This document shows, piece after piece, positions 48,685 through 61,749 of a DNA stretch of 64,000 bases. The notes beneath the pieces were generated by a model. The model was not told the DNA's origin. It saw only the letters and a program-made list of their open reading frames with translations, and searched no databases. This stretch comes from Candidatus Bathyarchaeota archaeon (GTDB lineage: Archaea > Thermoproteota > Bathyarchaeia > Bathyarchaeales > Bathycorpusculaceae), in the NCBI GenBank assembly GCA_963815095.1, contig CAWFFH010000006.1, positions 96,001-160,000 of the forward strand, in the 5' to 3' direction. Both the position numbers and the translations under genes were made by a program. The number at the start of each line of letters is the position of its first letter. Within the stretch, counting starts at the first letter, position 1.

Positions 48685-48717
48685 CTAAATTTTCTCCTAA
48701 ATGTATTGTTTGCTTAC

Positions 48718-48762
48718 GGTTCAGTCCCGAAGGACCACATCCCAACGGACTATGTTGTCCGC
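48718..48762 (-). promoter_or_regulatory. Structured 5' leader of the rpl15e operon: hairpin plus UUCG-capped kink-turn-like element
   Basis: GCGGAC-AACATA-GTCCGT then GGGATGTG-GTCC-TTCG-GGAC-TGAACC; TTTATC TATA-like box near 48795-48800. Confidence 0.65.
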
Positions 48763-56788: not shown

Positions 56789-58483
56789 CTAAGAGGCTTT
56801 TTTGGCGACAGGTTTCACGTGTAGGGCAGCTTTTTTGGCTGCTTGTTCAGTTAACATACCAATTAACTGACCATTCTTTACCATGGCTGCTCGCTTGAAA
56901 TCTTTTTCACCCATAATTTTCATGGCAGTAATCATTGACTCGTTACCTTCCAAAATGATGAGAGGCGTGTAATCGATGTCTTTTGCAAGAGTCTTCAGCG
57001 GGTCTTTCCGTGCATCAACAATTTCTCTTAGTAGTTCTCGGTCGTTAATTACGCCGATGGGTTTGTGGTTTTCAGTAATCAAAACTGAAGTAACATTATT
57101 CTGCAGCATCTTACCCACGGTCTTAGCCACACTCTCAGTTGTTGCAATTTCCACTGTTGGAAGCTTTGTACCTGCTTGACTGCTAATTTCAGTTATGTCA
57201 ATGCCGCGTTTCCAGATATCATCTAGCATTTCGCTGACCCTTTCAATTTGGCTGGGGTCGCTGGAGTAGAAGGTGTCAGCTAAGTAGAAGGCAGATTCGG
57301 TGCCTAAATCGCTTAGAGGTGGCATCTTGAACATAAACAGGTGTTTATCGTCAACCAACATCATTGTTAGGTAGCTGATTGGGACGTGTTTGACTTCGTA
57401 GTCCTTTGCTAGTTTCTGTGCGGGTTCGAGGTTGTCTAAGTCGATGGATGCCATTATGCGGGTGTTTAAGCCTTTTTTAAAGTATTTTATGATGGGGTCG
57501 CCTTCGGCTAGTCGGTTAATGCCCTGTGAAGAAGTAATTACAATGATGTCTTTTTTGGCTGAATCAAGAATCTTGGAAATTTTGTTCCATGCTTCCTCGA
57601 CGCCTTTTATGACGAGGGTTTCGCCAATGGGGATTCCGCTCTTAAGTTCCTCGATTCGTCTTGAAGCGTCAACTCCGCTCTGCCACATCTGCACAAAAAA
57701 CGCTTTCAAAACGGAAATGAACATTTTGTCGTTTATCCATAAACCTTCATCCTCCAAGTTTAGAACTGACGCTTCGTTTCCGAAGGGCGCGTAGAGGATG
57801 GCTTCTTCTTCGTCTTTGATAAGGAAGCGGGGGAAAAACTTTGAGCTCATGTTAACGTGGCGAAGTTTAATGTTAAGTTTATCTTCAGCAATTTCTCGAT
57901 CGATTCTCTCTACAACTTTGAGGTTCTCTGAGGCAATCTCCGTTATAATTTGAGTCTGCACTTTACTATCTTCAGGTGGACTAAGGACCGCATCGAAGAT
58001 TCCTGCAACGTCTTCTTGAATTAATCCCAGAGCAGTCGTTAAAACGATAACTTCAGATTTTGATTCCTCAATCATGTTGATCATTTTTGAGTGAATCTTT
58101 TTCTTGCCTGTGATGATTGAGAATTTAGCAACAGGATATTCTGATTCGGGTGCGCTAATTGATCCCCATGCTGTTAAAAGGCTTTGTTTCTGGTCGTTGA
58201 GGGTAACAACCTCAGTTTTTTTGGTGTTAATGAAATTATCAACTAAGTTTTCAAAGGGAACAATTGTGAACCGGGTTGGACGCTCAAGGGTTGCTTCGAT
58301 AAAACCTTTTTCTTGCAGTTTCTTGAAGGTGCGGTAAGCTTGGACCCGTTCCATCTTTAGGCGTTTAGCTACGAAGCTGGTTGATTGGACGCCGCTTTTG
58401 GCAAGGAACATGTAAACTTGAATTTCTCTTTTTGATAAAAGTAACAGTTGCAAAAATTTAGTTACGTCTTTTTCACTCATCAA
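56789..58483 (-). CDS. TrmB-family regulator with duplicated effector domains and a C-terminal CBS pair
   Basis: TrmB HTH; two PLD-like effector domains (FLIKDEEE, MLVDDKH); CBS motifs (KPIGVINDREL, QLIGMLTE). Confidence 0.85.
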   Translation of the reverse strand: MMSEKDVTKFLQLLLLSKREIQVYMFLAKSGVQSTSFVAKRLKMERVQAYRTFKKLQEKGFIEATLERPTRFTIVPFENLVDNFINTKKTEVVTLNDQKQSLLTAWGSISAPESEYPVAKFSIITGKKKIHSKMINMIEESKSEVIVLTTALGLIQEDVAGIFDAVLSPPEDSKVQTQIITEIASENLKVVERIDREIAEDKLNIKLRHVNMSSKFFPRFLIKDEEEAILYAPFGNEASVLNLEDEGLWINDKMFISVLKAFFVQMWQSGVDASRRIEELKSGIPIGETLVIKGVEEAWNKISKILDSAKKDIIVITSSQGINRLAEGDPIIKYFKKGLNTRIMASIDLDNLEPAQKLAKDYEVKHVPISYLTMMLVDDKHLFMFKMPPLSDLGTESAFYLADTFYSSDPSQIERVSEMLDDIWKRGIDITEISSQAGTKLPTVEIATTESVAKTVGKMLQNNVTSVLITENHKPIGVINDRELLREIVDARKDPLKTLAKDIDYTPLIILEGNESMITAMKIMGEKDFKRAAMVKNGQLIGMLTEQAAKKAALHVKPVAKKAS

Positions 58484-58579: not shown

Positions 58580-59242
58580 CTAAATTAGCTTCGTCTGTAA
58601 GGTTCCATGTTCACTTTTGGCTTTCTGCGCAGGCTTCCACGCTTTTCTGACAAAGCTTGGGTAATCTCCGTTCGTATCTAAAAGCCATTTTAAGAAAACC
58701 ATAGTTTTGTCATCAGTTAAGTATCCGCTACCAAAATCGCCATATTTCTTTCTTAATTTTTCAATCTCAGCATCCCGCTGTACTTTAGCAATTATTGAAG
58801 CTGCTGAAACTATAGGGTAAGTTCTGTCAGCTTTGTGTTCTGAAACAATTTTGGGTTTGAACCTCAGCAATTCAGCTATGTGGTTTCCGAACCGATGTTC
58901 CAACACATCTGCCGCATCAACGTAAGCTTCGTCAGGTCTTAAAACCTCAATGATTTTTGCCATAGTTTGGGCTTCAAGGCGGTTCAGTTTGTGGAGTGTT
59001 CTGCTGCTGCGAACTACTTTGTCAATTTGGGCAGGTGGAACCTTTATTATATGGTGTTTTTCGGTTAATTTAATTATTTCTGGGAATAGAGATTCCCTTT
59101 TTTTAGCGGTTAGAAGTTTGGAGTCTTTAACTCCCAAATCGATAAGTGACTGCAGATTCTCGGTTCTCACTGCAACGCCAGCAACAACTAACGGACCGAT
59201 AACGCATCCACGCCCAGCTTCGTCAACTCCAGCAACTAACAT
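58580..59242 (-). CDS. rnhB: Ribonuclease HII
   Basis: GVDEAGRG, KDSK, HKAD...VSAASIIAKV, GSGY. Confidence 0.96.
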   Translation of the reverse strand: MLVAGVDEAGRGCVIGPLVVAGVAVRTENLQSLIDLGVKDSKLLTAKKRESLFPEIIKLTEKHHIIKVPPAQIDKVVRSSRTLHKLNRLEAQTMAKIIEVLRPDEAYVDAADVLEHRFGNHIAELLRFKPKIVSEHKADRTYPIVSAASIIAKVQRDAEIEKLRKKYGDFGSGYLTDDKTMVFLKWLLDTNGDYPSFVRKAWKPAQKAKSEHGTLQTKLI

Positions 59243-59354
59243 CAAAGGTTCTTTCCCTAAACTATGAATGGGTTTGGTTCCTAGGCTATAACGCTTTTCC
59301 AAAAACAACAATTTCAAAGAAAACAAAAACTAGCGCAGATCAATTTAACCTCAA

Positions 59355-60053
59355 TCAAATTCGCTGTGCAACAATCATTGCGTGTGCTTTGTCGTATGGT
59401 TCTAGATCCACGATTTCTTTTACGTCAAAACCCCTGTTTCTTAGTATGGCTGCTTCTTGGCGATAGACTGCATTGGGGTCCATTGTAACGTCGATGCTTT
59501 GGGATTTGCATGCAAGCATAACCCAGCCTTGTGGTTTGAGGAAAACGTCTGCGTTGTCTGCGAGGAGTTTGGCTTGTTCGGGTTGTGCGACATCGCAGTA
59601 GATCGTGTCGACTTTGCCTGAGATGAACATGGCGTACCGCTCGGGCAGGCGTGCATCTTCGAGCATAGGTGAAATGTTGTTTCGGTAAGCCGCGACATTG
59701 TTAACTAAATCTCGAAGAGAGCGCTGCGCAAATTCTACGCAGTAAACGTGTCCGGTGTCACCGACTATGTCTGAGACATGGCTAGGTGTGGTTCCAGAGG
59801 CTGCACCCAAATAAAGAATTTTGAACCCAGGTTCGACAGGTACGTTTTGGACGCCTTTTATGATGGCTCCTGCAAGTTTACTGCGGAACGCATCCCAAAC
59901 TCGGTACTCAACATATTTGAATTTGAAAAGCCGTTCGCCATAAACCCGAAGCCCAGGGGTCAAGTTTTTTGTGGCTAACCGCTGATGACCGTCTTCCAGC
60001 ATTACTTGGTAGATTTCTTCGAATTTAGGGTGTGGTTTAACTTTGAGGTGCAC
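59355..60053 (-). CDS. flpA: Fibrillarin-like rRNA/tRNA 2'-O-methyltransferase
   Basis: VYGERL, RSKLAG, LYLGAASGTT.SHVSD, DVAQPEQ; GTG start overlapping the nop5 3' end. Confidence 0.95.
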   Translation of the reverse strand: MHLKVKPHPKFEEIYQVMLEDGHQRLATKNLTPGLRVYGERLFKFKYVEYRVWDAFRSKLAGAIIKGVQNVPVEPGFKILYLGAASGTTPSHVSDIVGDTGHVYCVEFAQRSLRDLVNNVAAYRNNISPMLEDARLPERYAMFISGKVDTIYCDVAQPEQAKLLADNADVFLKPQGWVMLACKSQSIDVTMDPNAVYRQEAAILRNRGFDVKEIVDLEPYDKAHAMIVAQRI

Positions 60054-61470
60054 GTCGTTCTGGTCCCCGGTTTTGACCGCCACCGCTACCGCTTCCGCCG
60101 CGTCGGTCACCTCTATCGCCGCCACCGTAACTGAAGTTGCGTCCTCCGCCTCCACCGCCGCCTCCGCGATGTGGTGGTCTTGGACCTCTATCGCCGCCAC
60201 CAAAGTTTTTGCCACCGCCCCTGAATCCGCCTCGGTCATCTCTTCGTGGAGGTCGTTGTTCTCTTCGTTCAAATCCCGCTGCTCCTTCGGGACGTGGTTT
60301 AACTTCTTTTGGCGCTGGGGGTTCTTTGTATTTTACGTGGATTTCTTCTATGCGTTTGTTAATGTCCTCTTTTAATTTGTCTCCGATATAGTGTCCTGCT
60401 CCGAAAGCGTCAGCTCGAGCTGCAATGGCGAGTTTGCCTGCAATGACCCGGGCGATTTTTCCGCGTTGCCACCTTTTGGCGTCATGAAGCAGGGTGTGTT
60501 GGAAAATTAATCCATGTTTTGGTGGTCGTGCTCCTGTTTTTAGGCTGCGGAAGAGGGCTTTTTCTGCACCTATAACTTGTATAGTGCTTGCTGGTCTCAT
60601 GGCTAAGTTTTGTAGACTTCCTGCCATGGCAATCAAACGTGCCCCCAAAAGGGATCCAGCAACAGCGCGTACGTTTGGCGCGAGTTCCTCCATAGTGTGG
60701 TCAACGTAATCTTCCATGTTCTTGCGCAACAAATAGAAATCCAAAACGTTCTTGGCTAAGTCTTGCACCATTTCCAGGTCGGCTTCTGCCACATCTGCGC
60801 CCATAGATGATTCAGCTGCTTTCGCCATAAGCTGGGTTCGTTCTTTTGGAATGTTCTCTTTTTCCAAATTGTCAATAGTAAAGTTTTCCCTATCACCCAA
60901 GTTCACAACAAGCCTGGAGTACGTTTCGTGTTTTTCGACCAGACGATCAAGCTCTGGGAAGTACACGCCATACCATTCGCGGAGTCTGCCCATAAAGAGG
61001 TTAACGGTTTGATCTAAACTATCGAGTGTTTGGATGCCTTGAGCAACTATTAAGTCACGTTTTCCAGTGGCACCTTTAATCCGTAACTTTGCAAGTTCCA
61101 AACTGACACTGCGGTTCCAAACGCTAAGTTCCTGTTCGTCCTTCGCAAAGCCTACCTCAATCGCTAATTCACCCATCCGCGAATGAAGCACGGCGGTTTC
61201 CGCGGGCTTTGCAACTTCAACTTTGACTTTCATTTTCTTTTGGGCTTCTTCTGCCAACTTGCCGGATTCAAAAACAAAAGTATCGTAACCTACGCTTGCG
61301 AGAAGTGATATTAAGGATGAGACTTGATCGGATAATTTTCCAGACTCAGTTTTTAGCATGCTTTTTGCTGCTGCCACCGCATTTTTTGGAAACAGTGCTT
61401 TTTCTACTAAGCCGTTGTTTTCGTCGAAGGCTGCAACGCCGAAGGGAAATTGAATGATGACTATTTTCAT
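60037..61470 (-). CDS. nop5: C/D box sRNP protein Nop5 (Nop56/58) with C-terminal RGG-rich tail
   Basis: LREWYG.YFPEL, APN, PASTIQVIGAEKALFR, PKHG, GKIAR.IAGK. Confidence 0.95.
   Translation of the reverse strand: MKIVIIQFPFGVAAFDENNGLVEKALFPKNAVAAAKSMLKTESGKLSDQVSSLISLLASVGYDTFVFESGKLAEEAQKKMKVKVEVAKPAETAVLHSRMGELAIEVGFAKDEQELSVWNRSVSLELAKLRIKGATGKRDLIVAQGIQTLDSLDQTVNLFMGRLREWYGVYFPELDRLVEKHETYSRLVVNLGDRENFTIDNLEKENIPKERTQLMAKAAESSMGADVAEADLEMVQDLAKNVLDFYLLRKNMEDYVDHTMEELAPNVRAVAGSLLGARLIAMAGSLQNLAMRPASTIQVIGAEKALFRSLKTGARPPKHGLIFQHTLLHDAKRWQRGKIARVIAGKLAIAARADAFGAGHYIGDKLKEDINKRIEEIHVKYKEPPAPKEVKPRPEGAAGFERREQRPPRRDDRGGFRGGGKNFGGGDRGPRPPHRGGGGGGGGRNFSYGGGDRGDRRGGSGSGGGQNRGPERRAPQS
60109..60201. 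repeat. 18-bp direct repeat ACCTCTATCGCCGCCACC (encodes GGGDRG) at 60109-60126 and 60184-60201
   Basis: Two identical copies read directly from the sequence. Confidence 0.8.
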
Positions 61471-61749
61471 GTTATTTGGCCCCGATAAACTATGCATTGT
61501 AACTGCATTGTCTTTATAAATAGTTTCGTTGCCCGCAATCCAAAAGAACCGTTTTTTTTAATTTATATGCCTTGAGATGCCAGAAAACTATGGTTTGTTC
61601 TGGTTTTATTTTTGTTTTTTAGGAGGTTTGCTTATATTTTTCAAAAAAGTTAATACACAGCCTATAAATTAGTTGAAAACAAGGAAGGAAATCAAATCGA
61701 AGCTTCCAAAACAAATTCAAAAATTACTAAATTAAAGAGCGGTAAAATA

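Follow-up and report, generated by a model that had tools for sequence, protein, structure and literature searches.

Can the glycine- and arginine-rich (GAR) region that eukaryotic fibrillarin carries have a counterpart on the partner subunit of an archaeal fibrillarin, and what would such a region do there? The question is raised by a 64,000-nucleotide stretch of DNA from a Candidatus Bathyarchaeota archaeon (contig CAWFFH010000006.1; the whole stretch is here called the window), in which the gene for Nop5 lies directly upstream of the fibrillarin gene and encodes a protein with an RG-rich C-terminal tail. An earlier note on this DNA had seen in the tail a GAR-like disordered region and a plausible route to the eukaryotic arrangement. 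Our preferred reading, to which we give a probability of about 0.6, is that the tail is an RNA-binding or RNA-annealing disordered extension of the ordinary basic Nop5 tail, that the overlap between the two genes couples their translation, and that the likeness to eukaryotic GAR domains is convergent.

About 100 Nop5 residues come after the Nop domain, and the open reading frame (ORF) ends with RGGFRGGGKNFGGGDRGPRPPHRGGGGGGGGRNFSYGGGDRGDRRGGSGSGGGQNRGPERRAPQS followed by the stop codon, the RG-rich part lying where the earlier note had placed it (Table 1). The 88 tail residues that were counted comprise 30 G, 18 R, 2 K, 9 D+E and 5 F+Y (34% G and 20% R), with four RGG and three further RG, seven RG in all. 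The tail (locus L001) belongs through RGGFRGG to the di-RGG class, RGG(X0-4)RGG, and to neither the tri-RGG nor the tri-RG class; the di-RGG and tri-RGG classes were defined by Thandapani et al. 2013, as quoted in the accessible text of PMC9957100. The 18-bp duplication that had been reported for the tail is exact, two further degenerate copies match it at 72% and 78%, and the site of copy 1 reads GGGRDRG in relatives and in one metagenome contig, owing to a 3-nt insertion at 60118. With a GC content of 60.6% the tail DNA differs from the nop5 body (45.7%), the window (42.8%) and the genome (41.7%).

When all six frames of the genome (2.69 Mb) were scanned, two ORFs alone had a stretch of 40 residues as rich in G and R: Nop5 and an SSB-like protein. 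The latter, an OB-fold protein (PF21473, E 1e-13) encoded outside the window (G000 contig C1:46914-47519, plus strand), has at its C-terminal end a Gly/Arg/Tyr tail of about 60 aa with RGG and GGY, RSGGRGGGRGFGGGGGGYGGGRDRRGGGGYGGG... A further ORF outside the window, which from its sequence reads as ribosomal protein S4-like (G000 contig C3:370404-371009, minus strand), ends in a short RGRRGGRGGGRF.

Table 1. Features of the nop5-fibrillarin locus, in window coordinates.
Feature	Position	Strand	Remarks
nop5 ORF	60037..61497	minus	486 aa and stop; Pfam PF21572 and PF01798
Nop domain PF01798, RNA/L7Ae-binding fold	60346..61026	minus	residues 158-384, E 3.1e-71, profile 2-227 of 228
Nop5 C-terminal tail	60040..60345	minus	residues 385-486: Pro/Lys/Glu linker KEPPAPKEVKPRPEG, then FERREQRPPRRDD, then the RG-rich part
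RG-rich core	60040..60234	minus	R422-S486, 65 aa; di-RGG box RGGFRGGG
Longest GAR-type motif	60160..60237	minus	residues 421-446, 26 aa, 3 RGG and 1 RG; regex version of the published GMF pattern
Second GAR-type motif	60094..60126	minus	residues 458-468, 11 aa, 1 RGG and 1 RG; same regex
18-nt exact repeat, copy 1 (GGGDRG)	60109..60126	minus	repeat family D2
18-nt exact repeat, copy 2 (GGGDRG)	60184..60201	minus	exact match to copy 1
Fibrillarin gene	59355..60053	minus	232 aa from GTG, and stop; PF01269, E 1.3e-94
nop5/fibrillarin overlap, 17 nt	60037..60053	minus	GTG CAC CTC AAA GTT AA, includes the nop5 TAA (60037-60039)
Putative Shine-Dalgarno-like purine-rich GGGGA	60064..60068	minus	11-15 nt upstream of the GTG, inside nop5 coding sequence

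That the tail stems from an assembly artefact is ruled out, since relatives and independent contigs alike keep both its frame and its sequence. One soil-metagenome contig, independent of the genome assembly, is identical to the locus over 60203-60394, and a second, which covers 60038-60394, differs from it by 12 substitutions and a single insertion of 3 nt. A word search of sequencing runs gave a best share of 0.27, with every run below half, and contigs cover 60038-60627 in one run and smaller parts in further runs. Pairwise comparison among the five closest relatives gives 89, 64 and 334 tail differences at Nop5-frame codon positions 1, 2 and 3, and 279 synonymous against 113 non-synonymous codon differences; all tail indels are multiples of three. 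Conservation is highest over the last 12 residues, which is explained by their overlap with the region of the fibrillarin start. Taken together, these patterns of difference point clearly to a tail that is translated in the Nop5 frame and kept under purifying selection.

The tail belongs to a nop5-fibrillarin operon, here from a Bathyarchaeia archaeon, that is ordinary both as a gene family and as an operon. Residues 11-137 match the archaeal Nop5 N-terminal domain (PF21572, E 1.2e-13, Pfam), so that this fibrillarin-binding domain and the Nop domain are both present, as expected of an archaeal Nop5 (aNOP56), and fibrillarin follows directly downstream of nop5. Close homologues carry the source names Bathyarchaeota or Bathyarchaeia. 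The longest nop5 ORF begins 9 codons ahead of the start of the homologues (MKIVIIQ...), at 61470-61497; M10 and K11 of this ORF do not vary among 39 homologues, and close homologues have lengths of 468-476 aa. Translation therefore probably begins at M10, the ATG at 61468-61470, which would give a protein of 477 aa.

How far the tail deserves the name of a GAR domain depends on what it is compared with. The RGG/GAR region is described as the main feature that separates eukaryotic from archaeal fibrillarin, being missing in Archaea, in the accessible text of PMC7962484, PMC7194090 and PMC6239191, and the GAR domain of fibrillarin is given in that of PMC9957100 as about 55-65% G and 20-26% R, with residues other than G and R generally below about 20%. 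Searched with the same regex, one vertebrate fibrillarin has a 63-aa motif with 12 RGG and 3 RG (P0151) and another has motifs of 35+32 aa with 15 RGG and 1 RG (P0144). The best Nop5 motif is 26 aa and the second 11 aa long, and the composition of the best is 42% G, 19% R and 38% other residues. Like the GAR/RGG regions of eukaryotic fibrillarin/Nop1, GAR1 and nucleolin, the Nop5 tail is rich in Gly and Arg, is interrupted by FRGG, GF and Tyr, and appears disordered, and like that of fibrillarin it is attached to the same enzyme complex. Unlike the latter it sits on the C-terminus of the partner subunit and not on the N-terminus of fibrillarin, its RGG number 4 where the latter has 12-15, its G content is 34-42% as against 54-69%, it holds acidic residues, Pro, Asn and Gln, and its origin appears to be independent. 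By these measures the Nop5 tail is best described as a di-RGG box in a basic region without predicted secondary structure and not as a long GAR domain, and as much weaker than its eukaryotic counterpart. Of the GAR-like disordered region proposed earlier, what stands is thus an RG/RGG region that is probably disordered; a region of eukaryotic grade it is not. The statement that archaeal fibrillarins lack a GAR domain still holds for fibrillarin itself.

The protein was modelled with AlphaFold2 on a 39-sequence alignment, which gave no secondary structure from residue 390 onwards and a predicted local distance difference test score (pLDDT) of 33-48 in the tail. The quality of the model is low (mean pLDDT 61.5, predicted template modelling score 0.35), with low values inside the Nop domain too.

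A tail of this kind invites comparison with nucleolar phase separation. It could be a driver of condensates, in which multivalent contacts of RG and aromatic residues with RNA gather C/D small ribonucleoproteins (sRNPs) and nascent rRNA into a nucleolus-like body without a nucleus. The tail does have the RGG, GF/FG and Tyr elements that, according to the accessible text of PMC12951762, mediate contacts between intrinsically disordered regions and with RNA in eukaryotic fibrillarin and GAR1, and very long tails exist elsewhere, of about 270 aa (L031), 185 aa (L023) and up to 211 aa in Nitrososphaera. But phase-separating GAR domains have 12-15 RGG where this tail has 4, 38-45% of its residues are neither G nor R and 9 are acidic, and the tails of many congeners are without RGG, so that a function shared among them cannot depend on RGG valency. 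We regard a condensate driver as unlikely.

The homologous eukaryotic proteins Nop56 and Nop58 have C-terminal tails too, and their KKE/D tails consist of Lys/Glu/Asp repeats (PMC12951762, accessible text). The Nop5 tail resembles these, and those of Cbf5, as a charged and apparently disordered C-terminal extension, with Nop56/Nop58 also in the homology of the protein and the position, but differs in chemistry, being built of Arg and Gly and not of Lys/Glu/Asp repeats; it has 2 K in 88 residues. As regards the PRMT enzymes, which methylate the arginines of eukaryotic-type GAR domains, PRMT5 (PF05185) was not found in this 98.45%-complete genome, while the positive control was matched in two genomes; the search with PRMT_C (PF22528) gave no match in the genome either, yet its control matched nowhere, so this is not counted as absence.

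The refuting possibility that the tail is specific to one strain does not hold, since it is found across the genus and, in another form, in Nitrososphaera. Nop5 was detected in 39 of 41 relatives and in 286 of the 301 genomes of the class, where the listed open frames outside the source genus are mostly 388-435 aa long. With tail lengths counted from 88 residues past the AEKALF motif, all 27 loci of the source genus have tails, of 38-185 aa, and ten of them are G-rich (>=25% G). A sister genus has tails of 51 aa (L039) and 271 aa (L031), and other families of the same order have 9-24 aa of Lys and Arg (8 loci). Several types of tail occur in the genus: RGGFRGGG...NRGPERRAPQS in the source clade, REGGGRPFR...RRDRNRRRERR, ...KGGKRRRKQWRDKRGRQS, and RFGGGGRDQRRGGGGG. 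The 185-aa tail of L023 (G005:C130) has a tandem SGGGKFREGGGS array, the ~270-aa tail of L031 (G317:C48) consists of repeats rich in G, S, R and E (FRERSSES, GGERRSGG...), and many congeners have R/E/P-rich tails without any RGG. The source protein shares with short-tailed archaeal Nop5 (aNOP56) the same two Pfam domains, the gene order and the overlapping start, and its tail has the position of the Lys/Arg tails of other Bathyarchaeia, Thermoprotei, Asgard archaea and methanogens; it departs from these in having a tail of 4-10 times their length, in which Gly and Arg abound and RGG boxes occur, and which is hypervariable in length within the genus.

The tail is without detectable sequence homology, and its kinship therefore had to be read from the Nop domain to which it is joined. 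On a quick maximum-likelihood tree built from 42 rows of the Nop5 core (support from the Shimodaira-Hasegawa-like approximate likelihood-ratio test only, careful search unfinished), the lengthening of the tail falls at the base of the source genus and its nearest genera, and the G-rich state needs at least 4 changes. By this tree the RG tail is a derived feature within a single bathyarchaeal family. To judge from the loci compared, the tail is conserved as a trait and not as a sequence, and its length and composition shift fast by in-frame gain and loss of repeats.

Such a turnover could also mean that the tail is largely neutral low-complexity sequence, where replication slippage resizes an ancestral basic tail and selection keeps only its net positive charge, its frame and the embedded ribosome-binding site of fibrillarin. 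The extremely fast change of length and composition within one genus agrees with this, as do the repeat arrays, of which the tandem array of L023 and the exact 18-nt duplicate of the source genome are examples, and the finding that the best-conserved last 12 residues are those overlapping the fibrillarin start region. Across the whole tail, however, synonymous differences exceed non-synonymous ones (279 to 113), the GC-rich codons for Gly and Arg are retained in a genome of 41.7% GC, one other protein alone in the genome tolerates such a tract, and G/R-rich tails have arisen independently in Nitrososphaera. We find a neutral tail rather unlikely.

Nop5 with R/G-rich tails recurs in some lineages of the TACK archaea (Thaumarchaeota, Aigarchaeota, Crenarchaeota and Korarchaeota). 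The Nop5 of a Nitrososphaera locus (L121) has a G/R-rich tail of 104-116 aa, and the best 120 Nop5 matches to it in a protein search have tails of 0-211 aa (median 50), 40 of them with at least 40 aa and at least 25% Gly. The Nop5 of Nitrososphaera viennensis (P0185, NOP5/NOP56 family protein) has a modest R/G-rich tail of 51 aa, holding RFGGGGRDRREGGRDRFGGG, and a marine thaumarchaeal form (P0133) has GGRRE repeats. The likeness to the source lineage extends to the variable length of the tail (29-211 aa in Nitrososphaera), to the position directly upstream of fibrillarin and to an open alternative frame into which gene callers wrongly extend fibrillarin. On the other hand, Nitrososphaera is of a different class and the conserved end of its tails is KDRKRFGKRRY, where the source clade has NRGPERRAPQS. 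Families of Bathyarchaeia with short tails lie between the source lineage and Nitrososphaera, and the origins of the two tails are therefore independent. Thermoprotei, Methanomethylicia and Methanobrevibacter have Nop5 with short tails rich in Lys or in Lys and Glu.

To reach the archaea closest to eukaryotes in their fibrillarin, we used a fibrillarin alignment with a eukaryotic sequence at its head to scan genome contigs, and obtained the 80 archaeal loci that most resemble eukaryotic fibrillarin. Among these are nine Asgard loci (5 Thor, 1 Promethearchaeota, 2 Heimdall and 1 Odin), seven of them with nop5 directly upstream; at the two Heimdall loci nop5 was not found on the fibrillarin strand within the flank. 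The seven Asgard Nop5 have short basic (Lys/Arg) tails, 0-14 aa past the +100 mark, RGG is absent from all six of the tails that could be scored (L114 was not), and none of the nine sampled fibrillarins has an N-terminal extension, all starting at the core. The survey of TACK and Asgard Nop5 ends and junctions that the earlier note had called for, which here sampled these 80 loci and about 45 others, thus shows R/G-rich tails recurring in some TACK lineages and none in the sampled Asgard genomes. The precursor idea accordingly lacks phylogenetic support: the tail is derived in one family, and the sampled Asgard genomes are without it. Descent of the eukaryotic GAR domain from the Nop5 tail is unsupported, and we infer that the likeness is convergent.

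Two observations concern the records searched. Four Nitrososphaera Nop5 proteins (P0171, P0179, P0201 and P0208) are named 'ribonucleotide-diphosphate reductase subunit beta' at NCBI; their sole Pfam domain is Nop, and the names look wrong. Locus L046, on a contig titled as a Rickettsiales bacterium metagenome-assembled genome (MAG), has a fibrillarin 67% identical to plant fibrillarin and no nop5 upstream, and seems to be DNA of a eukaryote that was sorted into a bacterial MAG.

The other half of the earlier proposal concerned the reading frame. Fibrillarin lies in frame +1 relative to Nop5, overlaps it by 17 nt from its GTG, and stays open upstream across the tail, all as had been described; the frame is open from 60272, and the Pfam match begins at residue 78 of that long ORF. 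Over 246 nt of tail the fibrillarin frame has 0 stops against 4.9 expected at the density of the nop5 body, where none of 322 windows of equal length is open. The frame also remained open in 5000 of 5000 codon-order shuffles and in 5000 of 5000 uniform synonymous recodings. The tail's amino-acid composition alone forbids stops in the +1 frame, and the open frame is therefore evidence of nothing.

It does have a consequence for annotation, since an open alternative frame leads gene callers to yield false 'long fibrillarins' and occasionally false fusions, a systematic artefact. Fibrillarins with a length of 407 aa or more numbered 48 in a search, and in the 'long fibrillarins' of 413-531 aa (P0125-P0128, P0130, P0131 and P0134-P0137) a normal fibrillarin is preceded by an alternative-frame reading of a Nop5 tail, the N-terminal halves being rich in Ala/Val/Glu or in Glu/Thr/Lys/Asp.

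It might still be asked whether the overlap and the open frame make, by programmed frameshift or mutation, a Nop5-tail-fibrillarin fusion that would be a route to the N-terminal GAR domain of eukaryotic fibrillarin. The 48 proteins do include fused ORFs from metagenome protein sets: the 693-aa P0046, P0123 and P0124, both partial, and P0132 and P0133, which are thaumarchaeal. Each of them, however, occurs on one contig. Over 452 aa P0046 shares 98% identity with P0036, an unfused protein with 5 member sequences, and it is within a poly-Gly run that P0046 departs from the Nop5 frame. Assemblies of relatives have frameshifted nop5, in three pieces at L014 (G009:C18) and with a shifted tail running into fibrillarin at L006 (G003:C4); both are probably assembly errors, and they point to assembly or sequencing errors in the fused forms too. 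At L089 the fused frame in a named MAG crosses undetermined bases. No fusion is found among the open frames listed in the class survey, where the sole one above 600 aa (665 aa) has a long tail and is not a fusion. From their sequences, the fused ORFs are in our view either errors of sequencing or assembly or else rare mutants. Variation is moreover concentrated at Nop5-frame third positions up to the stop, and the openness forced by composition, the RG tail derived within one family, and the short basic tails and unextended fibrillarins of the Asgard sample all speak against the same idea. Nor would the single-base change proposed earlier have the effect ascribed to it, as a frameshift joins the two proteins and does not relocate the tail. 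We consider this route to be highly improbable.

What then is the overlap? The fibrillarin GTG at 60051-60053 begins MHLKVKPHPKF..., 4 codons before the conserved VKPH. The V(K/R)PH anchor could be recognised in 39 related loci, and nearly all of these have a start codon 12 nt before it, mostly GTG, with ATG once and TTG four times; this GTG is retained in all five closest relatives and in most other loci. An in-frame GTG further upstream (~60081-60083) was considered as the start and rejected, as it is absent in two of the five closest relatives (L003 and L005). The overlap is 17 nt in 22 of the 39 loci, including families with short Lys/Arg tails, and 4, 11, 14, 20 or 23 nt, or a 1-nt gap, in the remaining ones. 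Since relatives with short Lys/Arg tails have it in common, the 17-nt overlap is ancestral and not linked to the RG tail; the arrangement is, on this comparison, older than the tail. Most related loci have GGAGA, GGAGAG or GGGGA at the same distance before the fibrillarin start as the GGGGA found here.

We hypothesize that an ordinary basic archaeal Nop5 tail was enlarged, by in-frame gain of repeats, into a flexible and positively charged arm containing RGG. Such an arm may bind RNA without sequence specificity and help the C/D sRNP to hold or anneal guide and target RNA, so that Nop5 would supply in trans a function comparable to that of the RGG region of eukaryotic fibrillarin and of the KKE/D tails of Nop56/58. 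Binding of RNA by the tail is suggested because RGG regions and GR low-complexity domains of eukaryotes bind RNA, which is presented as established in the accessible text of PMC7962484, PMC12951762 and PMC11132505, and because the only other such tract of the genome is on an OB-fold protein that binds nucleic acids. The 17-nt overlap would act by translational coupling, giving matched amounts of Nop5 and fibrillarin, an obligate heterodimer.

Some of our results weigh against this reading. The RNA contigs cover 59833-59957 alone, which is inside fibrillarin, so that none bears on the tail. With the tail only (78 aa) as query, 1.84 billion representative proteins yielded 0 matches at E up to 0.001. 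The AlphaFold2 model is poor overall and thus weak evidence for disorder, and the coupling and the role of the Shine-Dalgarno-like motif are read from the sequence alone. The tails range so widely, from 38 to 271 aa and from 4 to 41% G, that no specific motif can be required, which would fit weak constraint as well.

In the surroundings of the operon, RNase HII is encoded at 58580-59326 (minus strand) directly after fibrillarin and on the same strand; it also adjoins fibrillarin in the Nitrososphaera locus (L121:3138-3791), but on the opposite strand. A 564-aa protein at 56789-58483 (minus) combines the N- and C-terminal TrmB regulator domains with a CBS domain. At 48713-48761 (minus) the window has an Rfam match to the ribosomal-protein leader 'eL15-Euryarchaeota' (42.5 bits against a gathering score of 33.7), here in a genome of Bathyarchaeia.

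Known from this locus are the gene family and the operon; new is the tail, of interest because it recurs, turns over fast and occurs in a genus that has a cultured member. Full-text literature searches, which did not cover subscription-only papers, found no paper describing R/G-rich tails on archaeal Nop5. As a wider and decidedly speculative idea, to which we give a small chance, mesophilic TACK archaea (one family of Bathyarchaeia, Nitrososphaera and some Nitrosopumilales) may have gained RG-rich Nop5 tails independently as RNA annealers or condensate formers that concentrate guide ribonucleoproteins on nascent rRNA. If true, a nucleolus-like organising principle would have evolved without a nucleus, and an RGG region on the C/D enzyme would not be a eukaryotic invention.

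Some archaeal lineages place an RG-rich and probably disordered arm on the C/D particle by way of Nop5, and appear to have done so repeatedly and with fast turnover. One carrier genus, Nitrososphaera, has a cultured member, N. viennensis, and the tails, from 10 to ~270 aa, form a natural series for asking what role a tail has in an RNA-guided enzyme without a nucleolus.

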